From: an uncultured bacterium
GTDB lineage: Bacteria > Patescibacteriota > Minisyncoccia > Phycocordibacterales > Phycocordibacteraceae
Length of the DNA stretch: 64,000 bases
Assembly (NCBI GenBank): GCA_947085505.1
Contig: CAMTWI010000004.1
Coordinates: 129,800 to 193,799, forward strand
Direction: 5' to 3'
Shown: in pieces, positions 690 to 63,697 of the stretch
Position numbering within the stretch: position 1 is the stretch's first letter
Layout: every line of letters starts with the position of its first letter
Translations under genes and position numbers: made by a program
The notes under the pieces: generated by a model
Told to the model about the DNA's origin: nothing
The model's database searches: none
The model's input: only the letters and a program-made list of their open reading frames with translations

Positions 690-737
690 GCAGAGTCCGG
701 TAAGGTTTTCATGCTACGAGCGTCTATACTTCTATAC

Positions 738-1286
738 ATGAAGAACACACCATCCATAGTGCTGGCTCTAGCCTTTGCCGTACTCGCTGTTCCCGCCATA
801 ACCCAGGCGGAGACTCCGACAATGTGCACCATGCAGTACGACCCGGTCTGCGGTACAGAAAAGGGTGTTTACAAGACGTACGGAAACAGCTGCGTGCTCG
901 GTGCTGAAGGTGCGACGTACCAACACAAAGGCGAGTGCACTGCTGCTGAGCTTAATGGAAAGCAAGAAGGAACCTATACGCCTCCAGCGAACTGCACCTC
1001 CTGGTTTGATGGGTGTAACAGCTGTAGCAAGAACGCAAACGGCCAAGCTATGTGCACACTTATGGCTTGCATGGGAGAGCCGGCTGCAGGGTATTGCAGA
1101 GCCTATGGAGAAACAACACCTAAGCCAGTCCCGTCCTCACCTCCGTCAGAGACTGTTGGGAGTGGCAGTATTGAGCCTGTAGAGGCTGAGATAGTTGTTG
1201 AAGCCACAACAACGGTTGAGACCGATCCAGGATTCTTCTTTGCCATCTGGAGAGCTATTGTTGCGTGGTTCCAAGGACTCTTCTAA
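738..1286 (+). CDS. secreted Cys-rich protein with a Kazal-like module
   Basis: Signal peptide MKNTPSIVLALAFAVLAVPAITQA. YDPVCG...TYGNSC...HKGEC spacing resembles a Kazal inhibitor domain, but only 4 Cys are present. A second Cys-rich module and a hydrophobic C-terminus follow. Start chosen from TATACT(725-730)-N7-ATG. Confidence 0.6.
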   Translation: MKNTPSIVLALAFAVLAVPAITQAETPTMCTMQYDPVCGTEKGVYKTYGNSCVLGAEGATYQHKGECTAAELNGKQEGTYTPPANCTSWFDGCNSCSKNANGQAMCTLMACMGEPAAGYCRAYGETTPKPVPSSPPSETVGSGSIEPVEAEIVVEATTTVETDPGFFFAIWRAIVAWFQGLF

Positions 1287-1298
1287 TCCTGTGGTGCT

Positions 1299-1327
1299 TT
1301 GACTAAGCTTCCCACTTCGGGCATATT
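1299..1327 (+). promoter_or_regulatory. sigma70-type promoter, predicted leaderless start at 1334
   Basis: TTGACT (1299-1304), 17 nt spacer, CATATT (1322-1327), then 6 nt to the ATG at 1334. Confidence 0.55.
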
Positions 1328-1333
1328 TTATGG

Positions 1334-4870: not shown

Positions 4871-4899
4871 TTGCTACAAAAAATTACCAGGTGTATAGT
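4871..4899 (+). promoter_or_regulatory. sigma70-type promoter, predicted leaderless dnaJ
   Basis: TTGCTA (4871-4876), 17 nt spacer, TATAGT (4894-4899), then 6 nt to the ATG at 4906. Confidence 0.6.
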
Positions 4900-4905
4900 G
4901 GCCGT

Positions 4906-5976
4906 ATGGCGAAGAACTATTACGACATACTCGGCGTCGACAAGAAGGCCACTCAAGACGACGTTAAAAAGGCGTTTCGTAAGCTTGCGCAGAAGCACCA
5001 TCCTGATAAGGGTGGGGATGAGTCTAGGTTTAAGGAAATAACAGAAGCGTATAGCACCCTCTCAGACGAGAAGAAGCGTCGTGAGTACGATTCATACGGT
5101 CAAACGTTTCAAGGAGGAGGAGCTGGCGGGTACGGAGGCTTTGATCCGTCTCAATTTGGTGGCTTCGGGCAGGGTGGCGTTGAGTTCGATCTGAACGATC
5201 TCTTCGAGGGATTTGGAGACATATTCGGCGGAAGAGGAGGACGCTCTCGTGTGAAGCGTGGGCGAGACATTTCTATTGATATCGAGGCAACCTTTAAAGA
5301 GTCTATCCTTGGCGGTAGCCGCTCCGTACTCCTCACTAAAGTAGGTACCTGCAACACGTGTGAGGGTTCCGGTGCAAAGCCTGGAACCGAACTTGAGACC
5401 TGCAAGACCTGTAACGGGCAGGGCAAGATGCATGAGACGCGTAACTCGCCCTTGGGCGCGTTTACAAGCGTTCGATCATGCTCTGTGTGTGAAGGCTCGG
5501 GAAAGCTTCCGAAAGAGAAGTGTTCGACTTGCTCCGGACACGGTGTAGAGCGCCGCGAAGAGGAAATCAAGATTCAGATTCCAAAGGGTATTGATGGCGG
5601 GGAGATGATTCGTATGCCAGGACAGGGTGAAGCCATCAAAGGTGGGGTCTCCGGGGATCTGTATGTGAAGGTGCACGTGAAGCCGCATTCGGTATTTAAG
5701 AAAGAAGGCATGAACCTTGTGATGAACATGCCTATGAAGCTTACGGACGCGCTTCTTGGCACCACTGCAACCATCACCACCATCGACGAGAAGAAGCTTG
5801 AGGTGAAGATCCCAGCTATGAATGAGGCACAACAGACACTTCGCTTGCGAGGAAAAGGAGTCTCTATCGACGGACACGAGGGCGACCTCCTTATTCGTTT
5901 AACCGCGACCTTACCGAAGAAGATCTCAGGCAAGGCAAAGAAGGCAATCGAAGAATTGAAGAGCGAAGGACTCTAG
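4906..5976 (+). CDS. dnaJ: co-chaperone DnaJ
   Basis: J domain with HPDK, a G/F-rich linker and four CxxCxGxG repeats. Start moved from the track GTG at 4891 to MAKNYYDILGV. Confidence 0.95.
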   Translation: MAKNYYDILGVDKKATQDDVKKAFRKLAQKHHPDKGGDESRFKEITEAYSTLSDEKKRREYDSYGQTFQGGGAGGYGGFDPSQFGGFGQGGVEFDLNDLFEGFGDIFGGRGGRSRVKRGRDISIDIEATFKESILGGSRSVLLTKVGTCNTCEGSGAKPGTELETCKTCNGQGKMHETRNSPLGAFTSVRSCSVCEGSGKLPKEKCSTCSGHGVERREEEIKIQIPKGIDGGEMIRMPGQGEAIKGGVSGDLYVKVHVKPHSVFKKEGMNLVMNMPMKLTDALLGTTATITTIDEKKLEVKIPAMNEAQQTLRLRGKGVSIDGHEGDLLIRLTATLPKKISGKAKKAIEELKSEGL

Positions 5977-6012: not shown

Positions 6013-6021
6013 TGCTATGCT
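6013..6021 (+). promoter_or_regulatory. extended -10 promoter, leaderless start at 6028
   Basis: TGcTATGCT, then 6 nt to the ATG at 6028. Confidence 0.5.
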
Positions 6022-6027
6022 AACCGT

Positions 6028-6534
6028 ATGGATGTCGTTAACCAGTTTGCAACCGGCGGGTTTGGATCAATTGTGACCTTCTTCGGGAACTTCCTTGTTC
6101 TTGTTGTTATAGCGGCGCTACTGTTCTTCTTTGCGCTTCGTGCGGGGCGAGCGATGCTCATTTCTCTTATACTCGCCCTCTATGTAGGATTCGCACTCTT
6201 TACGGTATTTCCGTACAAGGAGATGTTTCTTGTAGGGGACTCTGCACTTGTTCGGGCAGTTGCCGGAATCACACTCTTTGCAGTGTTTACCTTCTTCCCG
6301 TACATACTTCTCCGGCGGGTTGCCACGTCTGGCTCTATGCGAATTAATCCCATAGTGCTTTCTCTCCTTGCTCTTGTTACCGGGGGCTTCGTACTAGCGC
6401 TCGGGTATCACGTACTTGATATTGCAGCAGTTATCCCGCTTACCCCGTCTCTTGATGCTCTGTTTGCACCAGACAAGTACTTCTTCTGGTGGTTTGTAGC
6501 ACCAATGATCGGCGTGTACGCTACAGCCCGTTAA
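6028..6534 (+). CDS. multi-pass membrane protein, function unknown
   Basis: 168 aa with 4-5 hydrophobic helices. Confidence 0.6.
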   Translation: MDVVNQFATGGFGSIVTFFGNFLVLVVIAALLFFFALRAGRAMLISLILALYVGFALFTVFPYKEMFLVGDSALVRAVAGITLFAVFTFFPYILLRRVATSGSMRINPIVLSLLALVTGGFVLALGYHVLDIAAVIPLTPSLDALFAPDKYFFWWFVAPMIGVYATAR

Positions 6535-6582
6535 TTACACCACGTGCGGCTTTATGAAGTTCGTGGTATAATCCGAGGCTCT

Positions 6583-8382
6583 ATGGAGTCTATAGAAAAG
6601 AAAAAGAAAGCGGTTCGCTCGGTGCCTGTGCTTCGAGCGTATTTTTCCGCTGGAAAGAAGTATCCGTGGCTCGTTACTTCGCTTCTTCTCGGCAGCTTCC
6701 TTATAGAAATTGCAGGCGTCATCTCTCCGCTGTTTATCAAGCAGTTTATAGACCAGATCTCTGAAGGAGATGTCTCTGACGGAGTTGCATATGGACTCTT
6801 TGTAATACTCGGATTCTACGGACTTACCATGCTCATGGGGTGGATCGGACGCCGTATCCAGATGCTCTCCATGATGTATCTCGAGGCGAAGGTGATGGTC
6901 GACCTATACAACAAAGCATTCGCCTACCTTATTGGTCATTCCCACGACTTCTTTACAAAGAACTTCGCAGGATCGTTACAGCGTCGTATAAGCAGGTATG
7001 CGCAGTCCTTTGAGTCGGTTGTTGACATCTTTACGTTCAGTTTCTTTTCAACCGCGGTCTTCTCGGTGGGTGTGATTATCGTCCTTATCCAGCGGAATAT
7101 TTATATCGGGCTCGGGATCCTCGTATGGACGATCCTGTTCATCTGGATACAGATGGTTATGACAAAGTGGCGACAGCCGCTTCGTGTTAAGCGTGCAGCG
7201 GAGGAAAGTAATGTCACGGGTGTGCTTTCAGATTCCGTAAGTAACCAGTCAACCATAAGCCTGTTTGCAGCAGACCGACATGAACGCAGTATCCTTGGCA
7301 ACGCTCTCGGAAAGTGGTACCGCGCGACCATGAAATCATGGACTGCAGATGTATGGATCATGGGCGTTCAGGGGATCTTCGCGATCATCATAGAACTCGC
7401 GCTCCTCGGTGGTGCCGTACTGCTCTGGCAGCAAGGCCTCATCACTATTGGTGACTTCGTACTCATCCAGGTTTACATCATTGGGCTTGTTGACCGCGTG
7501 TGGGGAATCGGGAGTTCTATGCGCCGCCTCTTTACGGCGCTTGCGGATGCAAACGAGATGGTAGAGATATTCGACACACCGCATGCGGTCATGGATGCTC
7601 CAGACGCAAGGCCGCTCATTGTCCGGAACGGCGAGATACGCGCAGAGAATGTATCCTTTGGGTTCAACGAGGAACGCATCATTCTCAAGAGCTTCACGCT
7701 AAACGTTAGTGCGGGCGAGAAGGTGGCACTCGTAGGCCCTTCGGGAGCTGGTAAGTCCACCGTAACAAAGCTCCTTCTGCGCATGTACGACGTGACCAGC
7801 GGATCGATTCGCGTTGATGGGCAGGATATCGCAAAAGTCACCCAGGAGAGTCTTAGAGAGAACATCTCCTTCGTTCCGCAGGAACCTATTCTGTTCCATC
7901 GCTCTTTGCGAGACAATATACGCTACGGACGCCCTGAAGCGACCGACGAAGAAGTTATCGATGCTGCGAAGAAAGCTCACTGTCATGAGTTCATCGCATC
8001 GCTTGCCGAAGGGTACGAGACGCACGTGGGAGAACGAGGCGTGAAGCTATCAGGAGGCGAGCGTCAGCGCGTCGCCATCGCTCGTGCCATCCTTAAGAAT
8101 GCGCCGATTCTTATTCTGGACGAGGCAACATCTGCTCTTGATTCAGAGTCCGAGGCACTCATTCAGGACGCCCTTCGAGTTCTGATGGAAGGTAAGACGG
8201 TTATTGTTATTGCACATCGACTCTCTACCATCATGACCATGGACCGCATTATCGTTATTGAGGGCGGAAAGATTGCTGCTGAGGGAACCCATGACGAGCT
8301 CGTGACCCATAAGGGTGGTCTGTATCAGAAGCTGTGGAGCATCCAAGCGGGCGGGTTCCTTGACGACAGCAAGACGGTATAG
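6583..8382 (+). CDS. ABC transporter, fused permease and ATP-binding protein (MsbA-like exporter type)
   Basis: Six-TM N-terminal half. Walker A GPSGAGKST, signature LSGGERQR, Walker B ILILDEATS. Start at the Met after TGgTATAAT (6564-6572). Confidence 0.9.
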   Translation: MESIEKKKKAVRSVPVLRAYFSAGKKYPWLVTSLLLGSFLIEIAGVISPLFIKQFIDQISEGDVSDGVAYGLFVILGFYGLTMLMGWIGRRIQMLSMMYLEAKVMVDLYNKAFAYLIGHSHDFFTKNFAGSLQRRISRYAQSFESVVDIFTFSFFSTAVFSVGVIIVLIQRNIYIGLGILVWTILFIWIQMVMTKWRQPLRVKRAAEESNVTGVLSDSVSNQSTISLFAADRHERSILGNALGKWYRATMKSWTADVWIMGVQGIFAIIIELALLGGAVLLWQQGLITIGDFVLIQVYIIGLVDRVWGIGSSMRRLFTALADANEMVEIFDTPHAVMDAPDARPLIVRNGEIRAENVSFGFNEERIILKSFTLNVSAGEKVALVGPSGAGKSTVTKLLLRMYDVTSGSIRVDGQDIAKVTQESLRENISFVPQEPILFHRSLRDNIRYGRPEATDEEVIDAAKKAHCHEFIASLAEGYETHVGERGVKLSGGERQRVAIARAILKNAPILILDEATSALDSESEALIQDALRVLMEGKTVIVIAHRLSTIMTMDRIIVIEGGKIAAEGTHDELVTHKGGLYQKLWSIQAGGFLDDSKTV

Positions 8383-8410
8383 CGCGTGGGCGTGATACGA
8401 TATTTGCATC

Positions 8411-9874
8411 ATGTCAGCACTCGACGAAATACGCGCAGAAAAGCTACGCAAACTGAAGCTCCTTGAAGCTGCGGGGAGGAATCCCTACCCCAACAATGCC
8501 AGGCGTACGCATGAGATCGGACAGATCTTAGGGGGATTTAATGTGCTTGAGACTGAGGGTGGGAGTATCGTTGCTGATGGAAGGATTCGCTCCATTCGAA
8601 CCCATGGTGGCTCTTCGTTCGTTGATATCGATGACGGGACCGGCAAGATGCAGTTGTTTTTGAAGAAGGACGAGATTGGCGAAGAGGCGTTTACACTCTT
8701 TATCGACACTATTGATATTGGGGACTTTGTTGAGGCAACCGGAGTACCTATGCGCACCAAAAGCGGACAAGAAAGTCTTCTTGTTTCGGATTGGCGAATC
8801 CTTTCGAAGACGCTTCGTCCCATTCCAGACGAGTGGTATGGGTTCTCAGACGAAGACGAGCGATTCCGTCGCCGATATCTCGACATGCTTCTTAACAAGG
8901 AGGTTCTTGAGAACGCAAAGAAGCGTTCGGTCTTCTGGAATGCGTTCCGGACGTATCTTCTATCCCGCGAGTTCATTGAGGTCGAAACCCCAGTACTTGA
9001 GAACACCACCGGGGGCGCAGAGGCGCGTCCTTTTATTACGCACCACAACGCACTCAACATTGATGTGTATCTTCGTATCTCTGCAGGCGAGCTCTGGCAG
9101 AAGATGCTTCTTGTTGGAGGGCTTCCAAAGACATTTGAGATAGGTCGTATCTTCAGAAACGAAGGTATGTCCCGCGAGCATCTCCAGGACTACACCCAAC
9201 TTGAGTTTTACCAGGCTTATTCAGATTATGAGGAGGGTATGCGCATGGTTACCGATATGTACCGTTTCGTGGCGCAAGAAACCTTCGGTACTCTTGAGTT
9301 CACTATTGGCGAGCACCAGGTTGATCTATCGAAAGACTGGGAAGTCTATGACTTCTGCGAGGTTATAAAGAAGGAATACGATATTGATCCCCTAACTGTT
9401 TCTCTTGAAGAGGTTAAGGCGGCACTTAAGAAGGCCGGTATAGAGAAGGACGCTGATTCTATGAGTATCGGGCGTGGTGTTGATCTCCTGTGGAAGCGCA
9501 TACGGAAGGGTATTGCCGGCCCTGGATTCCTTATTGGTGTTCCGGTGTACCTTGAGCCACTTGCGAAAAGAAGCGAGAAGAATGCGGAGATTGTAGAGCG
9601 CTTCCAGATTATCCTTGCAGGAAGCGAGATGGGTAAAGGATTCTCTGAGCTCAACAATCCTATCGACCAGAAGGATCGATTTCTTGCGCAGCAGGCTCTC
9701 CGCGATGCCGGGGACGACGAGGCGCAGATGGCGGACATGGATTTCGTTGAAGCGCTTGAGTACGGCATGCCACCTTCGTTTGGGTTTGGACTCTCTGAGA
9801 GACTCTTTAGTTTCCTTATGAACAAGGACGTACGCGAGACGCAGCTGTTTCCGTTGATGCGGCCAAGAGAATAG
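8411..9874 (+). CDS. lysS: lysine--tRNA ligase, class II
   Basis: 487 aa; OB-fold N-domain plus class II core (FRNEGMS, GFGLSERL). Confidence 0.95.
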   Translation: MSALDEIRAEKLRKLKLLEAAGRNPYPNNARRTHEIGQILGGFNVLETEGGSIVADGRIRSIRTHGGSSFVDIDDGTGKMQLFLKKDEIGEEAFTLFIDTIDIGDFVEATGVPMRTKSGQESLLVSDWRILSKTLRPIPDEWYGFSDEDERFRRRYLDMLLNKEVLENAKKRSVFWNAFRTYLLSREFIEVETPVLENTTGGAEARPFITHHNALNIDVYLRISAGELWQKMLLVGGLPKTFEIGRIFRNEGMSREHLQDYTQLEFYQAYSDYEEGMRMVTDMYRFVAQETFGTLEFTIGEHQVDLSKDWEVYDFCEVIKKEYDIDPLTVSLEEVKAALKKAGIEKDADSMSIGRGVDLLWKRIRKGIAGPGFLIGVPVYLEPLAKRSEKNAEIVERFQIILAGSEMGKGFSELNNPIDQKDRFLAQQALRDAGDDEAQMADMDFVEALEYGMPPSFGFGLSERLFSFLMNKDVRETQLFPLMRPRE

Positions 9875-50063: not shown

Positions 50064-50077
50064 TTCCCTATTCTACC

Positions 50078-50799: not shown

Positions 50800-50810
50800 G
50801 CCACACATAC

Positions 50811-50840: not shown

Positions 50841-50974
50841 TATCTCATACAATTTGACACATGCTCGTATATGTTTTAATATCTATCCGGAGATTCCTCG
50901 GCGTATGTGGAAACGGCTTCCTGCCATTCACCCGCCGGATCATCAATCAGAACATCGAAAGAAGGAGAATTGTT

Positions 50975-52373: not shown

Positions 52374-52476
52374 ATATAGGCATCCTACCGGTCCTGGGGC
52401 CATAGGGCAAATTGACGATTTTGGATTTTATTGGTTATCTCTAATTAGACTCATCGAATACGAAAGGGACGAATCA

Positions 52477-52809
52477 ATGTCAGAACCTAGGTTATATGGA
52501 TTTGAGCGATCTCAGGCTCTCAAGCTGCTCGACTCATCCGCAGCTCGTACACACTACGTGATGGAACCAACGTTGAGTGGAATGATCGCGGGCGCAATGC
52601 TTGGAGCAGTCTCGTTTTTTTACTTCCACGGATTCCAGACCCTGCAGACATCCGATGGCTGGCGTCAGCTCTTTTTTTGTCTGATTCTTGGCGTAATTCT
52701 GGTTGGAGGAATCCTTTGGGCCTCACACTACGAGAACATCGAAAAGTTACTCAGAGCAGATCGTGACGCAAGGGTCTTGAACCAGATGCGACACAATGAC
52801 AACCAGTAG
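52477..52809 (+). CDS. small membrane protein
   Basis: Internal Met MSEPRLYG of track ORF 52132..52809. The upstream part of that ORF is antisense to rplI. Two TM helices. Confidence 0.5.
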   Translation: MSEPRLYGFERSQALKLLDSSAARTHYVMEPTLSGMIAGAMLGAVSFFYFHGFQTLQTSDGWRQLFFCLILGVILVGGILWASHYENIEKLLRADRDARVLNQMRHNDNQ

Positions 52810-52815
52810 TAGCGT

Positions 52816-52850
52816 AAAACCGCCCGGCTTCGTAGCCGGGCGGTTTCTTC
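52816..52850. terminator. bidirectional terminator
   Basis: AAACCGCCCGGCT-TCGT-AGCCGGGCGGTTT. Confidence 0.75.
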
Positions 52851-52858
52851 ATTGCGCT

Positions 52859-54118: not shown

Positions 54119-54124
54119 ACCCAA

Positions 54125-54133
54125 ATCATATCA
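54125..54133 (-). promoter_or_regulatory. extended -10 promoter, leaderless ctpA
   Basis: On the minus strand: TGATATGAT, then TTGGGT, then ATG. Confidence 0.5.
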
Positions 54134-54204
54134 TGATGCCCATATCCCCGAGTAGAGCGTGAACGAGGGTTTTGGTTCACCAACGGGAGCGTATACTTAC
54201 CCTA

Positions 54205-55122
54205 ATGATAACTAGGCACAAACGCGGCAAGGCGGTATGGGTCGATCTTGAGTCGCCCACTGATGACGAGATTAGGGATGTTATGTGTGAATTCAATATA
54301 GATGAACGTATTCGTGAGGAAATACAAACCCCGACACCCTATCCACTCTCTATCGCATTCCCAGACTATTCTTACCTTATCCTCCATTTTCCGGTGGCAG
54401 GTTCTGTAGATGGCACCCGGTCTCAAGAAGTAGACTTTGTCGTTGGAAAGGAGTTTCTCATAACGGCCCGCTATGAATCGGTCGAGTCCCTTCACAATCT
54501 GCAGCGTGTTCTCGAAACTGAGGAGCTGCTTGGCATTTCAGGAAACTCAAAACCTGTCGGTGAGATGCTTGAACGAGCATTGGGTCACCTCTATACATCA
54601 ATTGGAGAAGAAATTGAACGTGTTGGCAGACGACTCGAGCGCATCGAACAAGACATCTTTGCAGGAAAGGAACGACAGATGGTGCGAGCCATATCAAACA
54701 CAGGCCGAGTCTTACTTCGGTTTGAGACTTCTCTTGCACGACACGAGGAACCATTGACTGAATTCCTCGCTGGACTATCAACAAGCTCACTTCTCGGTAC
54801 ATACTTCGAAGAACATGCAGCAAAGATTGCAAGCCGTCGTGCGCATGCAAAATCTCTAGCATCATCCTACCGAGAAATTGCGCACGAACTACGTATTACG
54901 AACGACTCACTCCTTAACACCTCCCAAAATGAGGTTATGAAGATCCTTACCATCATGGCTTTCGTAACCTTCCCGCTCTCGCTTATCGCTTCGGTATTCG
55001 GCATGAACACAGAATATTTGCCGTTCGTTGGCCAACCGGGTGATTTCTGGATTGTGGTTGGCATAATGGTTGCCCTTACCATCACTTTCTTCGCCTATTT
55101 CAGAATGAAGCGGTGGCTCTAA
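54205..55122 (+). CDS. corA: magnesium/cobalt transporter CorA
   Basis: GMN motif (VFGMNTEYLP) between two C-terminal TM helices. Start chosen from TATACT-N7-ATG. Confidence 0.88.
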   Translation: MITRHKRGKAVWVDLESPTDDEIRDVMCEFNIDERIREEIQTPTPYPLSIAFPDYSYLILHFPVAGSVDGTRSQEVDFVVGKEFLITARYESVESLHNLQRVLETEELLGISGNSKPVGEMLERALGHLYTSIGEEIERVGRRLERIEQDIFAGKERQMVRAISNTGRVLLRFETSLARHEEPLTEFLAGLSTSSLLGTYFEEHAAKIASRRAHAKSLASSYREIAHELRITNDSLLNTSQNEVMKILTIMAFVTFPLSLIASVFGMNTEYLPFVGQPGDFWIVVGIMVALTITFFAYFRMKRWL

Positions 55123-55155
55123 CCTGTATAAGACACCGTGCGGTAGAATATTGCT

Positions 55156-56619
55156 ATGACCTGGCTCACCTCCCTCTTCTCGCGCAAAAGTGAGCCCGCA
55201 AAAAGTGAGGCTCCTCTCTTCTTTACTAACACCCTCTCGGGCAAAAAGGAGCTCTTTTCCTCGCGCAAGGCGGGAGAAGTTTCTATGTATTCCTGCGGGC
55301 CAACAGTCTACAGTAAGCAGCATATTGGAAACCTGAAGGCTCCTTTGTTCGCCGACCTTGTTGCGCGTGTACTCTCTTCCTCTGGCTACCGTGTGCGAAG
55401 GGTCATGAACATCACTGACGTTGGACACCTTGTTTCTGACGCAGACGAGGGTGAAGACAAGATGGAGGCCGGTGCCCGCTCTGAGGGTCTTTCCGCTCAA
55501 GAGGTGGCAGCTCGTTACACACGACTTTTCCTTGAGGACAATCGATTACTCAACATAGATACTGATGCGATTAGCTTTCCGCGCGCAACTGACTACATAA
55601 AGGAGCAAATTGCTATGGTACAGACGCTCGAACAGAAAGGATATGCGTATCGCACAAGTGACGGCGTCTATTTTGATACAAGTCGATTCCCTCATTATGG
55701 TGCCTTAAGCCATGGTGGCGGCTCGTTTCGTGAAGAGGCATTTGCCGAAATCGGTCGACGTGTTGGCCACAATCAAGAAAAGAGACACCCTGCAGACTTC
55801 GCACTTTGGAAACTCTCTCCAAACGGTACAGCACGACAACAGGAATGGGCATCTCCTTGGGGCACCGGGTTCCCCGGCTGGCACATTGAATGCTCTGCAA
55901 TGGCAAAGGCATTACTTGGTCCTGAACTCGATATTCATACGGGAGGTATTGACCACATACCAGTACATCACACAAATGAAATAGCGCAGTCCGAAAGCGC
56001 AAACGAGAAACCTCTCTCTCGATTTTGGATGCATGAAGCATTCATAAACTTTGGAGATGAAAAGATAGCGAAGTCCACCGGAAACGTAATCTACCTTTCG
56101 GATATCACAGAGCGTGGCTACAGTCCTCTAGCACTACGTTATTTGTTTCTTCAGGCGCACTATCGCTCACCCCTTTCCTTCTCCTGGGATGCGCTTGCTG
56201 CAGCAAATGAAGCACTAGGACGCTTAACGAAGCTTGCTCACAAGATTAGTGTTGAAGCGAAAGGGCGTATGCGACAAACCGACACAAGCAGACGCATGAT
56301 TGCGCTTTTACGCGACGATCTTGCTACGCCCGCAGCATTAGCACTAGTGTGGCAAGTTGTACGAGACGAAGAGATGACCCGTGAAGAACAGCTTGCCGTT
56401 ATCGACGCTGCGGAAAGCGTCCTTGGGCTATCCCTTCTAACGCCGCATGATGTGCTCGACATCCCGCCGCACATACAAGCGCTCGTCAAAGAACGTGAGT
56501 TGGCCCGTAAAAATGGTGATTTCGCAAAATCTGATGCACTGCGTATCCACATAGAGGAGGGTGGATATCATGTGGAGGACAGGCCTTCCGGAGCCATAGT
56601 CACTAGGAGACCTGGTTGA
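55156..56619 (+). CDS. cysS: cysteine--tRNA ligase
   Basis: CGPTVYSKQHIGN (HIGH) and KIAKSTGN (KMSKS-like). Confidence 0.93.
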   Translation: MTWLTSLFSRKSEPAKSEAPLFFTNTLSGKKELFSSRKAGEVSMYSCGPTVYSKQHIGNLKAPLFADLVARVLSSSGYRVRRVMNITDVGHLVSDADEGEDKMEAGARSEGLSAQEVAARYTRLFLEDNRLLNIDTDAISFPRATDYIKEQIAMVQTLEQKGYAYRTSDGVYFDTSRFPHYGALSHGGGSFREEAFAEIGRRVGHNQEKRHPADFALWKLSPNGTARQQEWASPWGTGFPGWHIECSAMAKALLGPELDIHTGGIDHIPVHHTNEIAQSESANEKPLSRFWMHEAFINFGDEKIAKSTGNVIYLSDITERGYSPLALRYLFLQAHYRSPLSFSWDALAAANEALGRLTKLAHKISVEAKGRMRQTDTSRRMIALLRDDLATPAALALVWQVVRDEEMTREEQLAVIDAAESVLGLSLLTPHDVLDIPPHIQALVKERELARKNGDFAKSDALRIHIEEGGYHVEDRPSGAIVTRRPG

Positions 56620-56633
56620 TAGAATAGAGGGTA

Positions 56634-57998
56634 ATGGCAACCGACCCCACCCTCCGCCTTCCACCTCAGAGCCTTGAGTCGGAGCGTGCACTCCTCGGCT
56701 CTCTTCTTTTGAAGCCGGATGCTATACACGACGTCTCGGACCTGATTCGACCCGAATCTTTCTATGCGGATAAACATCGCCATATTTTTGACTGTATGCG
56801 CGAGCTCGTTGAGCGCGGCGAGCCAATCGACATGCTCTCCTTGGGAGAACGGTTGAATACGAAAGGTCTCCTTGAGCGAGCTGGCGGACGTGCATACATT
56901 GCAGAGCTCGCGAGCTCTTCTCCTACCCCAGGCAACTTTAATCACTACGCGGAGCTCGTGGTGCGAAAGCACATCATGCGCTCGTTGATCGATACCGCGA
57001 GTGAGATTACAGAATCTGCCTATGACGACAGTGTCGACACGGCAGTTGCACTCGATAGTGCCGAGAAATCTATTTACGCTATCGGGAACGCGTCGGCAAC
57101 GCATAAGTTCGTTGCAATTAAAGACAAAATGGATGACGCATGGGATCGCATCGAATCTCTTTCTAAGAACAAGGGTGCCATTCGCGGCGTCTCAACCGGC
57201 TTCCCTGATCTCGACAACCTTCTCTCGGGTCTCCATAAATCTGATCTCATCATTCTTGCGGCACGTCCTTCCATGGGTAAGACATCGCTCGCGCTCGATA
57301 TCGCTCGTAACGCAGCTGTGCGCCATGACACGCCGGTTGGTATTTTCTCGCTTGAGATGAGCTCCGAACAGCTGGTTGATCGTATGCTTTCAGCAGAGTC
57401 CTTCATCGATTCCTGGAAGATGCGCACCGGTGCCATACATGCCGAAGAAGACTTCAGCAAGATTCGTGATGCGCTCGAGAGTCTTTCAAAAGCCCCTATC
57501 TACATCGACGACAAGCCAGCACAGAACATCCTATCGATGCGTGCAGTAGCGAGGCGCCTGAAGCGCGAACGTGGTATCGGCCTCATTATTGTCGACTACC
57601 TCCAGCTCATGGCCCCAACCAACACCAAGGCGTCTGATTCCATGGTGCAGCAGGTTACGGAGATATCGCGTTCTCTAAAGCAACTTGCGCGCGAGATCGA
57701 GGTACCGGTTATCGCACTCTCCCAGTTATCGCGTGCAGTTGAGCAGCGCGGCGGTACCCCTCGTCTCTCGGATCTTCGAGACTCGGGATCGATTGAGCAG
57801 GACGCTGACGTCGTTATGTTCATCCACCGAGAGGACAAGATAAACAAGGAGAGCGATCGCCCAAACATCGCGCAGATTCTTGTTGAGAAGCACCGCAATG
57901 GCCCTACCGGGAAGGTTGAGCTCTACTTCGACGAGAAGCGCACTAGCTTTATGCCGATGGATAAAACGGGATATGGCGAACTCGCTGACGAATTCTAG
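56634..57998 (+). CDS. dnaB: replicative DNA helicase
   Basis: N-terminal PPQSLESERALLGSLL, Walker A ARPSMGKTS; 454 aa. Confidence 0.95.
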   Translation: MATDPTLRLPPQSLESERALLGSLLLKPDAIHDVSDLIRPESFYADKHRHIFDCMRELVERGEPIDMLSLGERLNTKGLLERAGGRAYIAELASSSPTPGNFNHYAELVVRKHIMRSLIDTASEITESAYDDSVDTAVALDSAEKSIYAIGNASATHKFVAIKDKMDDAWDRIESLSKNKGAIRGVSTGFPDLDNLLSGLHKSDLIILAARPSMGKTSLALDIARNAAVRHDTPVGIFSLEMSSEQLVDRMLSAESFIDSWKMRTGAIHAEEDFSKIRDALESLSKAPIYIDDKPAQNILSMRAVARRLKRERGIGLIIVDYLQLMAPTNTKASDSMVQQVTEISRSLKQLAREIEVPVIALSQLSRAVEQRGGTPRLSDLRDSGSIEQDADVVMFIHREDKINKESDRPNIAQILVEKHRNGPTGKVELYFDEKRTSFMPMDKTGYGELADEF

Positions 57999-58000
57999 CT

Positions 58001-58606
58001 ATGCGCGATCGTATCGAAGACCTCTCATCTGCATTCAATCGCTTTCCGGGAATTGGTCCTCGGCAAGCGAGGCGTTTCGTGTATCACTTACTTGCCGTTC
58101 CGCAGAGCGACCGCACTCGCCTCGCTGACCTTATAGCAAACCTCGGAAATGATGTGCAGCAGTGCGCAATGTGTATGCGGTTTGCTCCCGTTACGAGCGA
58201 GTCCCTCTGCAACTACTGCGCAGACCAGAACCGGCAGGATGCGATTCTTATGATTCTCGAGAAGGATCAAGACCTTGTTGCGGTTGAGCGCACCGGCACC
58301 TATCGCGGACGGTACTTTGTGCTCGGCGGTGTACTTACCCTTTCCGGCAAGGGTGCAATTCGAGAGCTCGATTTAATACGAGTAGTTGAAGCGAGAGCCA
58401 GTACAGGTCTATCTGAGATTGTGCTCGCGCTTTCCGCTACAAGCGAGGGGGAACATACGGCAGATCGTGTGCGCGAAATTCTTGGACCTCTGCGTGGATC
58501 GATACTTATCTCAGAGCTCGGGCGTGGCCTTTCAACAGGCAGCGAGCTTGAGTATGCAGACTCCACTACCCTATCTGCAGCACTTCAAAACCGAAAGGAG
58601 ACATAA
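58001..58606 (+). CDS. recR: recombination protein RecR
   Basis: HhH N-terminus, C4 zinc finger (CAMC...CNYC), Toprim domain. Confidence 0.93.
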   Translation: MRDRIEDLSSAFNRFPGIGPRQARRFVYHLLAVPQSDRTRLADLIANLGNDVQQCAMCMRFAPVTSESLCNYCADQNRQDAILMILEKDQDLVAVERTGTYRGRYFVLGGVLTLSGKGAIRELDLIRVVEARASTGLSEIVLALSATSEGEHTADRVREILGPLRGSILISELGRGLSTGSELEYADSTTLSAALQNRKET

Positions 58607-58607
58607 G

Positions 58608-58645
58608 GAAAAGGCCCGCGAACGTTCTGTTCGTGGGCCCCTTTG
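58608..58645. terminator. bidirectional terminator
   Basis: GGCCCGCGAAC-GTTCT-GTTCGTGGGCC. Confidence 0.65.
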
Positions 58646-58649
58646 CCTA

Positions 58650-58928
58650 TCAAACGACCGGCGCGCCCTGGGCGGTATGCGGTCTCCAGCCGCATTTTGC
58701 GGCGAGGAGGTCTTCAACCTCCCTGCGCTCAATCAGAAAATGAGCGGTATTGCGATGATAACGCCAGACTTCCTGTATCCGGCCGAGGCCCGGGATTTCA
58801 ATCCTACTGTCCTCAGTCAGCGGCGGGCCATTCCAGTCTCGCTCAGCGCAGAGCGAATGGGTGCAGTCCGCATTTCCCACGACAAGCAACCGCGTGGGTT
58901 CAGTCTCAGCCACCGTTTGTTGTGTCAT
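58650..58928 (-). CDS. hypothetical 92-aa protein, GC-rich
   Basis: Start at MTQQTVAE, 7 nt after AGGAGG. Competing plus-strand ORFs lack start signals. Confidence 0.45.
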   Translation of the reverse strand: MTQQTVAETEPTRLLVVGNADCTHSLCAERDWNGPPLTEDSRIEIPGLGRIQEVWRYHRNTAHFLIERREVEDLLAAKCGWRPHTAQGAPVV

Positions 58929-59016
58929 CTCTATTCCTCCTGCTAGAACAATGCCAACAGCCATAGTGCCACAGCACGTTCGTAACGCAAGAACCGCCCT
59001 CTCAGGCGGCTTCTTG

Positions 59017-59346
59017 TTACGCGATTGAGTCAATCTTGACCCTAATCTCTGGCTGGCGATGTCCGCGGCGCTTTAGATAGCGGCTCTTAGCCTTGTACTT
59101 AACCACCTCGATTTTCTTGGCGCGTCCTACCGAGTACACGGTGCCGGTAACCGTCTTTCCGGGAAGTGTTGGTGTGCCAAGCGAAAGGGTGCCGTTATCG
59201 GTCATGAGGACCTTATCAAACGTGATAGTGTCCCCCTTCTTAATATCCTGCGTAGCGGCGCCACGACCAAGCTTCTCGATAGTTACGAGAGCGCCTGGGG
59301 AGACGACATACTGCTTGCCGCCGGTCTTGATTACTGCGAGTTCCAT
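59017..59346 (-). CDS. rplU: 50S ribosomal protein L21
   Basis: MELAVIKTGGKQYVVSPG. Confidence 0.93.
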   Translation of the reverse strand: MELAVIKTGGKQYVVSPGALVTIEKLGRGAATQDIKKGDTITFDKVLMTDNGTLSLGTPTLPGKTVTGTVYSVGRAKKIEVVKYKAKSRYLKRRGHRQPEIRVKIDSIA

Positions 59347-59392
59347 AGTCCCCGTATAGTACCGAAATAGGCCCTAGAAAGCAATAGCGGGG

Positions 59393-60445
59393 CTATTCCT
59401 CCCTATTTCCCGGCTTATCCAGGAGTTCCACCTCAAGCCCTATCTTCTCCTCGGTTATCCGGTAGACGTCCTTTTCAACTTTCCCGAGCTCCTTGTACCC
59501 ACTGTTGTAGTGCGATACGGCGGTTCCAAGGGCTGCCCCGAGCTTCTGATAGTAGGTCTCATAGGCCCCCAGATGCTTCCCAAGCTCACCCACGCGCTTC
59601 TGGATCTCTTCGGCCCGCTTCTCGATCTGAAGGGCCTTCAGGCCCTGCATAACGGTCTGGAGATAGGCGAGGAAGGATGTTGGCGAGACGATAATCACCT
59701 TGAACTTCCCAGCCGCACGTTGGATGAGATTCTCGTCCTCTCCCGCACCTACTTGGTTTGTGAGGAGGTCGTAGTAGATACCTTCCGACGGAATGAACAT
59801 GAACGCGAAGTCCATAGTTCCCTCTTCAGGACGGATGTACTTAGCAGTCTCAGAAATTCTAAGTTTTAGATCGTTCACGAACGCTTTCTCGAGCGCTATG
59901 CGTTCTGCACCCTCTGCATGAATGTAGCGGTTGTAGTTGTCGAGAGAGAACTTTGAGTCGACCGGTACAATCTTGTCGTTGATATACACCGCAGCGTCGA
60001 CAACCTCTCCGTTCTCGAACATGTGCTGCATCTTGAACATGCCTGGCGGCAAGACATTCTTAAGAACGGTCTCCAAGTAGTACTCGCCGAGAATACCGCG
60101 CTGTTTCGGATTCTTTAGGATGTCCTGAAGATTCTTTAACTGCTCCGCGAACTTCCCCGTCTCACGCCCGATCTCCTTAACAGAAGTTATCTCTGCCGTT
60201 ATCTCTTTTATGAGTCTTGAGGACTCTCCAAGCTGGCTACGAACGGTCTCGTGCATCTGCTTCGAAGACTCGTTCATACGGGAATCCAAGGAACGCTCGA
60301 GCTTCTCCATCTGATTCTGTATAAGTATGAGCCCTCCCTCGTCCTTAGGTTTATCGTTCTCACGACGACGGAGCATAAGCCACAGTCCAATCCCCTGCAG
60401 AAAGACAAGCACAAGAACGATTATGGCAACGGTGAAGATATCCAT
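59393..60445 (-). CDS. rmuC: DNA recombination protein RmuC
   Basis: N-terminal TM helix, long coiled coil, C-terminal RmuC nuclease-like region (FAFMFIPSEGIYYDL). TATACT-N6-ATG. Confidence 0.85.
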   Translation of the reverse strand: MDIFTVAIIVLVLVFLQGIGLWLMLRRRENDKPKDEGGLILIQNQMEKLERSLDSRMNESSKQMHETVRSQLGESSRLIKEITAEITSVKEIGRETGKFAEQLKNLQDILKNPKQRGILGEYYLETVLKNVLPPGMFKMQHMFENGEVVDAAVYINDKIVPVDSKFSLDNYNRYIHAEGAERIALEKAFVNDLKLRISETAKYIRPEEGTMDFAFMFIPSEGIYYDLLTNQVGAGEDENLIQRAAGKFKVIIVSPTSFLAYLQTVMQGLKALQIEKRAEEIQKRVGELGKHLGAYETYYQKLGAALGTAVSHYNSGYKELGKVEKDVYRITEEKIGLEVELLDKPGNREE

Positions 60446-60460
60446 ATGAAAAGTATACTG

Positions 60461-63151
60461 CTAGGCCGCGAAACCTGCCTTTCGGCTTGCTGCTTCTTGA
60501 GGACGGATAAAGACCAACCACTTAGCAAGCTCGATGGTGGCAAGATTTACAATACCGAACCCAACCAAGATCACGACCTGAAGCATTGTTGGTTGCGCGA
60601 TATGAATAAGTGTCTGTAGGAACGGCACATACAGCACCGCGAGGAGCAGTAGTGAGCTTGTGAGAAGAGACACGAGAAGGAATTTATTGGAAAGCAATGG
60701 CAACCTCCACAATGGCGTTCCAAAGCTCTTCATCGAGAACGCCATGAAGATACAGTTCACGGAGACAGCAATAAACATCAAGGTCTGGATTTCAAGAACG
60801 CTCACACTTGTCATGAAGACGAGATACAGATACACCCCAATAAGGGTTAAGGACGTAACCGTACCTACAAGCACAATAAGACGAAGAAGTTTTGGTGAAA
60901 GAACACGGGAAGTTTCTGGATCCTTTGGAGAGCGCTTCATGGCGTCTGGGTACAAAGGCTCAAACGCGAAGGCGAAGTTCATAAGACCTCCTTGGATGAG
61001 GTTGGACCACAGAATTTGAGTAGGAAGTATAGGAAGTGGTAACGCGAAAATAAGCGAAAATGCAATGAGAATAACCTCACTAAAATTGTTTGAAAGCATG
61101 TAGGCAAAAATCTTTCGGAAGTTATCCCGAAGTCGCCTTCCCTCTCGTATAGCGGCATTAATAACGGAAAAGCCATTATCAAGCAGCACCAAATCTGATG
61201 CTTCCTTTGCGACGTCGGTTCCCGATCCTACGGCAATCCCAATAGCAGCGGCCCGCAGTGCTGGCGCATCGTTCACTCCGTCTCCCGTCATTGCTACAAC
61301 TTCTCCGGCATCCTTGAGTACGTTGGCTATCCTGAGCTTTTCTGCAGGAGCGACCCTGGCAAAAACGCTGTGCTCTCTCAACACGGTAACGAGCTCCTTG
61401 TCTGTCAGTTCGGAAAGCTCCATACCCGTATAGACACGCTCGTCAGGACTGAGCGCAATACCAACCGCATGCGCAATGGATAGCGCCGTCTGTGGATTGT
61501 CGCCTGTGAGCATCACAACACGTGCACCGGCTTCTTGCATTTCGCGTATAGCATCCTTTGCTTCAGCACGAATAACATCCGAAAATATGAGCAAGCCCAG
61601 GAATTCGCCATGAGTAAGAACCGAAAGAAGATCTTTCTCGTTCGGAAACGAGCGAGCAGAGAACGGCATACGTGCCGCCGCGATAACTCGTTTTCCGTCT
61701 CGTGCCGCCGATGAGAGTGCGTCTTCAAAATGCGCACGCACCTTTTCTGTCATGGCGTGGGTGGTGCCTCCCTTTCCTGCTACTTTTGTAAACACTTCAA
61801 GAAAGAGCTCCGGCGCGCCCGTAAGATATGCGATGGGTCCGTCCTTTCCTTCGTACAACATCGCACCAAATCTGCGTGAAGAGTCGAAATGAAGTTCATC
61901 GAGTCGAGGGGACTCGGCAAGCAATACATGCTGTGCAATACCATTCTGAAGTCCGAGCGTCACGATTGCTTGCTCAATGGGCCTGCCGTGCACAACCAAC
62001 TTCTCGTCCTCAGACGCATCTTGCCGCTCCTCCACGTACGCGTTTGAGGCCAACACGCCCGCTAGGAGAAGTTGGTGCGCTTCTCCCTCTCTACCTTCGC
62101 GATACGTGTCATTCATTCCAACCAGCGTCTCGAGTGTCATGCGACCCTCGGTCAATGTGCCAGTTTTATCAGTGAGGATGTAGCTCGTTGTACCAAGCGT
62201 CTCAGCAGCAAGAAGGTTTCGCACAAGACCACCTTGCTTCAAAATCCGCTCCATCCCGAGCGCAAGCACGACCGTCACGGCGGCAGGGAGTCCCTCAGGC
62301 ACGCTCGCCACAGCGAGCGCGATTGCTGTAAAGAGAGTCTCTTCAAACGGAAGGTTGCGCAATGCGCCAAGCGCGAGAATACCCGCCAGTATCACTGCCA
62401 CCGCACCAAGCAGCAGGTGTGCTACCTGCCGTATATCACGCATCAACGGTGTTACTGTCTTGTCCTTCGTACCGAGTTCTGCTGCAATCTGGCCAAGCTC
62501 TGTATCTCCTCCCGCTGCCACCACAATTCCCTTTCCGGCTCCGGCAGCGATAAGAGTGCCCGCATACGCCATACCTGCGCGCTCAACAAGTGGAGCCTCA
62601 GGCACTGCGATAGTTGTACTCTTTTCGACGGCCATCCATTCACCAGAGAGCGCCGATTCGTTCACCATGAGCCCATGCGTCTCAATGAGTCGTATGTCAG
62701 CAGGGACGGCATCTCCTGTAGAAAGTGCAACCAGGTCTCCCAGCACAAGTTCCTCGGCAGGTATCCGTTTTGGTTCTCCGTTACGGAACACAACTGCAAA
62801 TTTAGCCTCGCCCTCTTTAAGTGCTTCGAACGCCTTGGACGCCCTCCCCTCCTGAACTAACCCAATGACTACATTTACAAAAAGCGCGATACCAATCACC
62901 ACGGTATCTGTCAGATGACCCAGGAATAGCATCGCGAACACGGCGAGCACAAGCACGAGCGTAATAGGGCTCGTAAACTGTCTTAAGAGCCGTATAAGAA
63001 AGGATTCACGTTCAGGAGCCGGGATGCGGTTTCCGCCTTGTTTAAGACGCGTCGCAGCCTCTTCTGGTGCAAGGCCTCGCTCTAAATCAGTCTTCTGATA
63101 CTCCGCAGTCTCCTCTAGAGAAAGGGCATGCCATGGTCGAGAATCTGCCAT
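60461..63151 (-). CDS. cation-transporting P-type ATPase (P2-type, Ca2+/Mg2+-like)
   Basis: DKTGTLT, TGDGVNDAPAL, 10 TM helices. Start at MADSRPWHAL. Confidence 0.93.
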   Translation of the reverse strand: MADSRPWHALSLEETAEYQKTDLERGLAPEEAATRLKQGGNRIPAPERESFLIRLLRQFTSPITLVLVLAVFAMLFLGHLTDTVVIGIALFVNVVIGLVQEGRASKAFEALKEGEAKFAVVFRNGEPKRIPAEELVLGDLVALSTGDAVPADIRLIETHGLMVNESALSGEWMAVEKSTTIAVPEAPLVERAGMAYAGTLIAAGAGKGIVVAAGGDTELGQIAAELGTKDKTVTPLMRDIRQVAHLLLGAVAVILAGILALGALRNLPFEETLFTAIALAVASVPEGLPAAVTVVLALGMERILKQGGLVRNLLAAETLGTTSYILTDKTGTLTEGRMTLETLVGMNDTYREGREGEAHQLLLAGVLASNAYVEERQDASEDEKLVVHGRPIEQAIVTLGLQNGIAQHVLLAESPRLDELHFDSSRRFGAMLYEGKDGPIAYLTGAPELFLEVFTKVAGKGGTTHAMTEKVRAHFEDALSSAARDGKRVIAAARMPFSARSFPNEKDLLSVLTHGEFLGLLIFSDVIRAEAKDAIREMQEAGARVVMLTGDNPQTALSIAHAVGIALSPDERVYTGMELSELTDKELVTVLREHSVFARVAPAEKLRIANVLKDAGEVVAMTGDGVNDAPALRAAAIGIAVGSGTDVAKEASDLVLLDNGFSVINAAIREGRRLRDNFRKIFAYMLSNNFSEVILIAFSLIFALPLPILPTQILWSNLIQGGLMNFAFAFEPLYPDAMKRSPKDPETSRVLSPKLLRLIVLVGTVTSLTLIGVYLYLVFMTSVSVLEIQTLMFIAVSVNCIFMAFSMKSFGTPLWRLPLLSNKFLLVSLLTSSLLLLAVLYVPFLQTLIHIAQPTMLQVVILVGFGIVNLATIELAKWLVFIRPQEAASRKAGFAA

Positions 63152-63226
63152 CGTCTTCTGAGTATACCCGACTAATATCAAGCCGCGATATGTGGGATAT
63201 TCGGTCTCCCTATATAGAGCCGGAAA

Positions 63227-63235
63227 TGCTACGAT
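63227..63235 (+). promoter_or_regulatory. extended -10 promoter, leaderless start at 63242
   Basis: TGcTACGAT, then 6 nt to the ATG. Confidence 0.5.
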
Positions 63236-63241
63236 TTCCCC

Positions 63242-63697
63242 ATGACCATACACCAAGGAATCAAGGCAGGAATCCCTGACGCGCTACGTGCCAAGGATGA
63301 AGTACGTCTGCGCACCCTCCGATCGCTCACAACCGCCATGACAAACGAAGTTGTAGCGAAAAAACGTAAGCCAGATGAGTTTCTCACCGATGAGGAGGCA
63401 CTAGCGGTACTCAAGCGCGCAAGCAACCAGCGCAAAGATTCTATCGAGCAGTTCGAAGCAGCAGGACGTCATGAACTAGCCATTCCGGAGAAGGAAGAGC
63501 TCGCGGTTATTGAGTCTTTCCTACCTGCTCAGATGAGCACTGAAGAGATTGAGGTAGTCGTTAAGGCCAAGATGGCTGAGGTGGGTATCACTGAAAAGAA
63601 GGATGCGGGTAAATTCACTGGTGCCGTTATGCAGGAACTCAAAGGCAAGGCAGACGGAGGAGCAGTGAAGGCGGTTATCGATTCTCTGCTTAGTTAG
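63242..63697 (+). CDS. GatB/YqeY domain protein
   Basis: Typical YqeY pattern (LRAKDEVRLRTLRSL...AVIESFLP); 151 aa. Confidence 0.85.
   Translation: MTIHQGIKAGIPDALRAKDEVRLRTLRSLTTAMTNEVVAKKRKPDEFLTDEEALAVLKRASNQRKDSIEQFEAAGRHELAIPEKEELAVIESFLPAQMSTEEIEVVVKAKMAEVGITEKKDAGKFTGAVMQELKGKADGGAVKAVIDSLLS

Follow-up and report, generated by a model that had tools for sequence, protein, structure and literature searches.

How does a gene begin when a promoter-like hexamer ends only six or seven nucleotides (nt) before its start codon? The question is raised by a 64,000-nt stretch of contig CAMTWI010000004.1 (hereafter the window, the whole of the DNA analysed), in which a preliminary description had noticed that many genes carry TAnnnT, often preceded by TGn, directly upstream of ATG, and no Shine–Dalgarno (SD) sequence. 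With good confidence these elements may be read as start-codon-proximal promoters that would give rise to leaderless or near-leaderless mRNAs. The window is densely packed with bacterial housekeeping genes at a GC content of 51%, and TGA ends its open reading frames (ORFs) normally, as in genetic code 11. Its contents according to Pfam include the grpE-dnaK-dnaJ chaperones, eight aminoacyl-tRNA synthetases, dnaB, recR, the ribosomal proteins bL9, bL21 and bL27, and a cell-wall cluster (dacA, an mraY-like GT4 gene, ftsW, murG), with short hypothetical ORFs scattered between them; there are two tRNA genes. The nearest relatives of its CysRS belong to metagenome-assembled genomes (MAGs) of Patescibacteria (83% and 70% identity), followed at 57–60% by 'Paceibacteria'/'Parcubacteria' records, by which the host is assigned to the Patescibacteria (candidate phyla radiation, CPR), Parcubacteria/Paceibacteria type. 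Identical copies of its TrpRS protein occur in MAG GCA_030695235.1 and in one Logan contig. A scan based on cysS supplied 80 loci from many phyla, designated by L-numbers below and used as relatives and controls, each a single sample of ~10–21 kb per genome with its depositors' own taxon label; gene order around cysS is kept in L003–L009 and further loci.

Genes were called with a self-trained codon model, and the first ATG of each ORF was taken as its start, blind to the motif, with d denoting the number of nucleotides between the end of the TAnnnT hexamer and the ATG. At d=6–7 the hexamer precedes 21 of 61 first ATGs, against 2.8±1.6 in 1000 dinucleotide shuffles (maximum 9; z=11), so that within the window the short box-to-start distance noticed earlier stands out clearly from shuffled controls; at d=5–10 it precedes 32 of 61, with 7.8 expected. 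Internal in-frame ATGs are preceded by it in 6 of 290 cases (2%), and ATG trinucleotides as a whole in 3.1%. In a six-frame scan of ORFs of at least 100 codons, first ATGs show a sharp peak of 13 at d=6 over a background of ~0.9 per position, followed by a shoulder at d=7–11 (7, 4, 7, 4, 4), with no excess at the in-frame neighbour positions d=3, 12 and 15. Among 64 patterns of the form XY...Z, TA...T is the most enriched at d=6–7 (11-fold, the next best, at 3-fold, being phase-shifted versions of it), and it also ranks first in the relatives. The enrichment of the motif in front of ATGs is real and far above chance. There was no excess of TAnnnT at d=14–40, the range of the archaeal group D box that lies ~26 nt upstream (the search at −26 took in no other type of box).

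That such a pattern might be a statistical or ORF-definition artefact, created by A+T-rich upstream regions, by stop codons supplying the 'TA' and by starts picked to fit the motif, is not without footing: three doubtful hits (gltX at 34705, Gmad2 at 45437, and 18378) do take their 'TA' from the TAA or TAG of the upstream gene, and the preliminary description had shifted some starts to fit. Yet these stop codons account for only 3 of 36 hits, the starts that gave z=11 were chosen blind to the motif, the in-frame neighbour positions show no excess, no other of the 64 patterns behaves alike, control phyla analysed identically have no peak, the arrangement is kept in orthologues, and independent gene calls in L001 yield the same starts. 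The artefact was rejected as scarcely credible. Removal of the three stop-derived hits and of a weak one at scpA left a cleaned set of 32 leaderless-type genes, in which the spacing is 6 nt in 14, 7 in eight, 8 in four, 9 in five and 10 in one; the motif is present at 27 of 51 candidate first genes of transcription units. The sequences and spacings listed earlier all read back correctly (12 N6, five N7 and five N8–10 cases, with 63151 a minus-strand ATG), two of the N6 cases, at 1334 and at a LAGLIDADG gene, being CATATT and CATACT rather than TAnnnT, and at 6583 and 56634, listed earlier among the SD-less genes, GAGG lies inside the spacer. Domain position and orthologues bear out the choice of start 4906 over 4891 for dnaJ and of 54118 over 54124 for ctpA, as do orthologues and Pfam that of 63151 for a P-type ATPase; if the leaderless model is true, the longest-ORF starts 4891, 54124, 63256 and 177 are wrong.

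The composition of the boxes points to a promoter. TG at −15/−14, one base upstream of the hexamer, accompanies 12 of 37 start-proximal TAnnnT against 48 of 1316 others (odds ratio 12.7, p=1.5e-8), so that about a third of the start-proximal boxes have the TGn of an extended −10. The base directly before the hexamer is seldom T (1/37 versus 25%), positions 3 and 4 favour T and A, respectively, and the commonest forms are TATACT (8) and TAGAAT (6). TGn together with an A2/T6 hexamer is the signature of sigma-70 regions 2.4 and 3.0 at extended −10 promoters (TGnTATAAT), at which a −35 element is dispensable. The spacing equals the canonical distance from −10 to +1, which at N6 would make the A of the ATG the first base to be transcribed. 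Across the window and 15 patescibacterial loci, moreover, the share of start candidates with the motif in front of them is 15.6% for ATG, against 1.8% for GTG and 2.8% for TTG (p=2e-21), a bond to ATG that a need for a 5'-terminal AUG would lead one to expect.

Divergent gene pairs further restrict where promoters may lie. Start codons are separated by 86 nt between ctpA (54116–54133 (−), TGaTATGAT-N6-ATG, start 54118 rather than TTG 54124) and corA (54192–54207 (+), TATACT-N7-ATG), by 90 nt between the P-type ATPase (63149–63166 (−), TATACT-N9-ATG, start 63151 rather than TTG 63256) and yqeY (63227–63244 (+), TGcTACGAT-N6-ATG), and by 83 nt between uppP (29163–29181 (−), TGgTATACTTT, i.e., TATACT-N9 or TACTTT-N7 before ATG) and scpB (29234–29251 (+), TATTCT-N9-ATG). 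The gap shrinks to 20 nt between the Ada-Zn protein gene (50498–50516 (−), TATACTTT, i.e., TACTTT-N8 or TATACT-N10 before ATG) and rpmA, and to 2 nt between a LuxR-type gene and lexA (46529–46543 (+), TACGAT-N6-ATG), the lexA box lying inside its divergent neighbour. Gaps this tight (2–90 nt) leave no other room for promoters, and in the two tightest pairs, LuxR-type/lexA (46536–46543) and ada-like/rpmA (50498–50523), the nearly touching starts imply that each promoter must lie within the coding sequence of its partner. Upstream of rpmA, at 23 nt, there is a conserved TGcTATAGT, which read on the opposite strand forms the first codons of ada.

A hexamer so close to the start could also act on the mRNA, as a non-SD translation-initiation signal UAnnnU that works through an A/U-rich ribosome or bS1 contact or through other 16S rRNA pairing, as has been proposed for Bacteroidota group B, with transcripts beginning further upstream. 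Such a signal would suit those boxes that follow same-strand genes by 3–15 nt (M23, exo, dnaB, rmuC, 16944), where polycistronic read-through is likely, and hexamers at which no −35 box was found, and some alternative signal is needed in Parcubacteria that reportedly have no anti-SD (PMC9297842). It is, however, difficult to reconcile with a 10-fold enrichment of TG upstream of the hexamer and with A2/T6 and T3/A4 preferences that match sigma 3.0/2.4 contacts and no known ribosome site, or with a spacing peak at the −10-to-start distance. The motif is also absent from 13 overlapping or abutting genes, while a group B motif is expected before every gene; the divergent pairs need promoters exactly at the motif sites; and the presence of canonical SD motifs alongside them speaks for a normal anti-SD. 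A purely translational role is consequently judged improbable.

The box-to-ATG arrangement is kept in orthologues whose flanks diverge completely. At corA, 18 of 19 orthologue loci, down to 22–36% protein identity, have TATACT or TATAAT 5–10 nt before a start that is itself conserved (ATG-ATx-ACx), and similar conservation extends to ctpA and to rplU (bL21; 59344–59361 (−), TACTAT-N9-ATG). The box of the RNase T-like exonuclease gene exo (50061–50075 (−), TAGAAT-N6-ATG) recurs in all six orthologue loci, at d=6 except in L009 (d=8), that of yqeY in nine of ten, and that of dnaB (56617–56636 (+), TGaTAGAAT-N8-ATG, its TG taken from the TGA stop of cysS) in 11 of 13. For cysS (55144–55158 (+), TAGAAT-N6-ATG) the N6 arrangement persists in L003–L006 as TAGAAT, TATAGT or TAACAT; for rmuC (60443–60457 (−)) TATACT-N6-ATG is kept in L003, L005, L006 and L007; and for rplI (bL9; 52371–52387 (−), TAGGAT-N8-ATG) TAGGAT stays at 8–9 nt in L003, L004, L006 and L007. 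By comparison, recR, 2–10 nt behind dnaB, is preceded by neither box nor SD in the window; of its 13 orthologue loci, 12 agree with this and L064 has only a d=4 match.

The peak at d=6 follows lineage as well. It reaches 20 in the five closest relatives against a background of 2.2 per position, and 48 against 12.8 in 23 other Patescibacteria-labelled loci. Of four patescibacterial subsets, three (Parcubacteria-type, 'Saccharibacteria'-labelled and unspecified Patescibacteria) show it at significance and Magasanikbacteria only as a trend; it is present, too, in Paceibacteria loci of 33–41% GC. The same analysis gave no d=6 peak in control loci from Ignavibacteria/Bacteroidota, other bacteria or DPANN archaea. 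Elusimicrobia-labelled controls (among L016–L081, e.g., L032) have a d=6 count of 16 against 3.3 per position together with a clear SD peak, which suggests that a minority of genes is leaderless there too.

The motif, its spacing, its excess of TGn, its specificity for ATG, its conservation and its distribution among lineages can all be read directly in these sequences, and it is from the canonical spacing, TGn, ATG, orthologues and lineage in particular that support for leaderless transcripts, with their start positions and mode of translation, is drawn. In the mechanism that we envisage, leaderless mRNA would be the default mode of expression in the host genome. A sigma-70-type holoenzyme would recognise a −10 TAnnnT (mostly TATACT or TAGAAT, about a third of them with TGn) in the absence of a recognisable −35, and with the box 6–7 nt (tail to 10) before the ATG, transcription would start at the A of the ATG or at most 4 nt upstream; the ribosome with initiator tRNA would then presumably bind the 5'-terminal AUG directly, independently of SD pairing. 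In so compact a genome, many of the promoters would overlap other coding sequence, either the 3' part of the gene before them or a divergent neighbour. Genes that abut or overlap an upstream stop (grpE, pepA, scpA, dacA, the mraY-like GT4 gene, msrA, recR) would probably depend on termination–reinitiation coupling, and a minority, mostly short strain-specific hypotheticals and six of them in a cassette, would use a canonical SD (GGAG to AGGAGG, 4–8 nt from the start).

Several points weigh against this picture, the first being that the case for leaderless mRNAs is built wholly on sequence. No −35 signal was found, the best TTGACA match 16–18 nt upstream averaging 2.32/6 against 2.36/6 for control hexamers, and a classical two-hexamer −35/−10 scan of 44001–64000 returned 10 sites, fewer than the 16.2 in shuffles, so that promoter recognition in the host seems to rely on −10/TGn alone. 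Regions upstream of tRNA genes (8; few and heterogeneous) gave no independent confirmation of the promoter. The tail at d=8–10, comprising 10 of the 32 genes, would mean leaders of 1–4 nt or flexible start-site choice and is thus not strictly leaderless, and for five boxes the preceding same-strand gene is no more than 15 nt away, so that transcripts reading through from it must exist too. Twelve genes fit no class, including dnaK, murG, hutH, and the 1334 and LAGLIDADG genes with their CAT-type boxes. Neither the window nor L003–L009 contains an rRNA gene. Look-ups for transcript-like contigs that begin at an ATG returned only two DNA contigs for trpS and no record for the exact rplU protein.

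How, then, are the remaining genes initiated? Curation of 71 genes, in which functional labels and some hypothetical-ORF starts are our own judgement, yielded 32 leaderless-type, 14 SD-led, 13 apparently coupled and 12 genes fitting no class. All SD leaders described earlier are present (4409, 13032, 15411, 21354 on the minus strand, 37603, 50975, 58928 on the minus strand, 63755, and the 39–41 kb cassette). The core of the 14 SD-led genes ranges from GGAG to AGGAGG, 4–8 nt from the start, which is GTG or TTG in four of them, and SDs form a peak at d=6–7 (a count of 7 in the window, where the background is 0.86) that is seen in the relatives too. Given this positional peak and the AGGAGG/GGAG cores at 4–8 nt, the host very probably keeps a functional anti-SD. 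The coupled class comprises genes that overlap or abut the same-strand gene before them and show neither signal (grpE, formyltransferase, 18378, 20023, pepA, scpA, dacA, the mraY-like GT4 gene, gltX, msrA, Gmad2, LOG and recR) and are presumably translated via termination–reinitiation coupling; an example is the dnaB stop followed after 2 nt by the recR ATG (57996–58003 (+)). Upstream of dnaK (2299–2393) and murG (33504–33543) there is neither TAnnnT at the right distance nor an SD; in another patescibacterial locus, L014, dnaK has an AAGGAG leader.

The preliminary description had further proposed a two-tier strategy, with core genes leaderless and accessory genes SD-led. The correlation stands, core genes making up 27 of 36 leaderless-type and one of 14 SD-led genes (Fisher p=1.5e-5, by our own functional labels), but as a strategy it is too simple. 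Nine leaderless-type genes are accessory or hypothetical (including the cupin, Kazal inhibitor and lapA-like genes and those at 6028, 16944, 37922 and 42192), eight core genes fall into the coupled class (grpE, pepA, scpA, dacA, the mraY-like GT4 gene, gltX, msrA, recR), and a box is lacking before the ATG of the core genes dnaK, murG, hisS and hutH, of which hisS was placed in the SD-led class because of a weak AGGA. Nor are all SD-led genes independent cases, since a single repeat-bounded cassette contributes six of the 14. SD-led genes are also shorter (median 133 versus 252 residues) and richer in third-position GC (0.58 versus 0.53), and no orthologue of the SD-led hypotheticals could be detected in L003/L004 even though the flanking genes are 83–100% identical. 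Added to the hotspot between recR and rplU, where the small SD-led ORF differs between the window, L003 and L004, and to the description of group C genomes (see below) as split by transcript position and not by gene function (PMC6028130), these features favour a division that follows transcript architecture and gene history, the boxes being real promoters. Genes heading a transcript would be leaderless, internal ones coupled or SD-led, and SD-led genes mostly recent acquisitions or members of the cassette. Against it stand the strong association of SDs with non-core genes and the position of the SD genes, 12 of 14 of which look like first genes of units (gap >15 nt or divergent), so that position alone leaves SD use unexplained. 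Our confidence in architecture and history as the source of the division is moderate, and they fit the data at least as well as a two-tier strategy.

Leaderless architecture is in itself already known, and that of the window appears to match group C of GeneMarkS-2, ~1000 genomes predicted to carry a Pribnow box 6–8 nt before first-gene starts and SDs elsewhere (PMC6028130). As to SD use by the remaining genes, the 14 SD-led genes conform to this scheme, yet the 13 short-gap internal genes are SD-less and 12 of the 14 look first. Mycobacterium, Streptomyces, Corynebacterium and Deinococcus are documented examples, their leaderless transcriptomes having TANNNT at about −10 relative to the start codon (PMC6028130). 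With Actinobacteria (Mycobacterium tuberculosis, M. smegmatis, Streptomyces, Corynebacterium), in which 25–50% or more of transcription units are leaderless, the window shares TAnnnT 6–8 nt before first-gene starts and dependence on AUG, and perhaps the use of SDs by other genes. Unlike these high-GC organisms it has 51% GC, with the same peak in related loci of 33–41%, and its boxes, about a third of them extended −10 elements, have no detectable −35 and often lie inside neighbouring coding sequence, while its operon-internal genes are mostly SD-less. Deinococcus deserti, for which 167 of 262 mapped genes are given as leaderless (de Groot et al. 2014, as cited in PMC6028130), and Deinococcus-Thermus likewise place the −10 motif directly before the start codon, but belong to another phylum; the Deinococcus case was confirmed by RNA-seq and proteogenomics, whereas the window, set beside either group, is known from its DNA only.

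Almost all code-11 genomes of group C are high in GC, the low-GC exception being code-4 Mycoplasma (MetaGeneMark-2). The latter resemble the present lineage in their small, reduced, low- to mid-GC genomes and reduced ribosomal equipment, with 30–60% of transcripts predicted leaderless, but differ in genetic code (the window uses code 11) and are unrelated. Sigma-70 extended −10 promoters offer the closest parallel for the box itself, with TG one base before the hexamer, invariant A2/T6 and a dispensable −35, except that in the window they are apparently the genomic default and place +1 at the start codon. Bacteroidota group B likewise combines an A/T-rich non-SD motif near starts with altered SD use; there the motif precedes all genes, operon-internal ones included, and so cannot be a promoter (PMC6028130), whereas that of the window is missing from overlapping and internal genes and carries the promoter-specific TGn. 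New with respect to these cases are the mid- to low-GC genomes, the −35-less and often extended −10, promoters embedded in neighbours, and SD-less coupled internal genes.

For the Patescibacteria at large, roughly half of the Parcubacteria are reported to have no anti-SD motif and often no bS21 (Tsurumaki et al. 2022, PMC9297842), and no alternative initiation mechanism is proposed for them in that work. A literature search found no paper linking leaderless genes or SD use to Patescibacteria/CPR, although an earlier description may exist, and a recent perspective on patescibacterial biology is silent on promoters and translation initiation. We tentatively suggest, at slightly less than even confidence, that leaderless initiation from a −35-less (extended) −10 is the default in a large part of the Patescibacteria, above all in Parcubacteria/Paceibacteria and in low-GC members too, and that it would explain initiation in the absence of an anti-SD. 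If so, the phylum would enlarge the leaderless bacteria of group C by a large and so far undescribed contingent, in which SD pairing either persists at a minority of genes, accessory or cassette ones, or has disappeared. For a phylum whose ribosomes are reduced, and from which bS21 is frequently and the anti-SD patchily lost, this would amount to a concrete, testable mechanism of initiation. Gene finding and start annotation in CPR genomes depend on knowing the initiation signals in use. Leaderless translation is often seen as ancestral, and its dominance in a deep-branching, streamlined lineage would bear on the debate over ancestral initiation. In practical terms, minimal TGnTAnnnT-N6-ATG cassettes would be natural expression signals for emerging genetic systems in Patescibacteria.

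The other leaderless-type genes, all on the plus strand except the alkA-like one, illustrate the range of contexts in which the box is found. N6 spacing is seen at the cupin gene (285–299, TATACT-N6-ATG, start 297 rather than 177), at dnaJ (4894–4908, TATAGT-N6-ATG), whose J domain begins at residue 4 and whose orthologues begin MAK or MSK, at a hypothetical membrane protein (6013–6030, TGcTATGCT-N6-ATG), at a hypothetical 127-residue protein (16932–16946, TATAAT-N6-ATG, 12 nt past the upstream stop), at trpS (23797–23814, TGgTATCGT-N6-ATG), at the hypothetical gene 'P2' (37907–37924, TGaTAGAAT-N6-ATG) and at a small secreted hypothetical protein (42180–42194, TATTGT-N6-ATG). The LapA-domain protein gene (44604–44618, TATACT-N6-ATG) is followed with a 1-nt overlap by msrA, which is coupled and has no signal of its own. 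N7 spacing occurs at the accessory Kazal-type inhibitor gene (725–740, TATACT-N7-ATG), at tyrS (21580–21598, TGcTATAGT-N7-ATG), for which the independent L001 gene call gives the same 416-residue product, at the M23 peptidase gene (36126–36144, TGcTATACT-N7-ATG), whose box lies within the last codons of gltX (gap 3 nt), at the alkA-like glycosylase gene (41618–41633 (−), TATACT-N7-ATG) and at trhO, of the rhodanese/UPF0176 type (43713–43728, TAGAAT-N7-ATG). Longer spacings are those of aspS (24817–24836, TGgTATTTT-N8-ATG), lysS (8393–8413, TGaTACGAT-N9-ATG, the box falling within the 28-nt gap behind the ABC gene), ftsW (32379–32396, TAGAAT-N9-ATG) and the ABC exporter gene (6564–6585, TGgTATAAT-N10-ATG), for which a short leader of ~3–4 nt is expected.

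Among the SD-led genes are a hypothetical membrane protein (15400–15413 (+), AGGAGG-N5-TTG), a lipoprotein-like hypothetical (50963–50977 (+), AGGAG-N7-ATG) that has no detectable orthologue in L003/L004, and the small ORF between recR and rplU (58926–58941 (−), AGGAGG-N7-ATG). The last gap holds an SD-led ORF of 80–92 residues in the window (58650–58941 (−)), in L003 (13512–13763 (−)) and in L004 (13495–13737 (−)), with similar SD contexts (AGGAGG or GGGAGG) and three proteins of no detectable similarity; it is either a fast-evolving gene or a replacement hotspot. The cassette of small hypothetical ORFs spans 38446–40932 (−), each ORF having a 37–67 nt repeat and an SD upstream (39230, 39872, 40444, 40550, 40921). 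The repeat family of this 'P1–P7' cassette (37867–41004) counts six to seven copies with the core AGGTTCCAACATCGTCCCAGACTGCCAGCAAT, spaced 336–670 nt, at 37867, 38357, 38939, 39275, 39945 and 40487, and a partial one at 40938. One copy lies between successive ORFs, and the minus-strand order is repeat, SD and ORF start. Integron attC identity was considered for these repeats and rejected, since they fold no better than shuffles (z 0.05–1.07) and no integrase domain is found nearby.

Elsewhere in the window, a low-GC stretch at 13700–20700 (genes at 0.41–0.45 versus 0.51 overall), which encodes a formyltransferase, an ATPase of histidine-kinase type, a histidine phosphatase and several hypothetical proteins, recurs as the same block in Logan contig L001 and may be an acquired island. 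Between tyrS and trpS lies a free-standing LAGLIDADG_3 ORF (22896–23754, 260 residues), in a layout shared by L001 and L002, and its last 10 nt overlap tRNA-Tyr (23669–23754).

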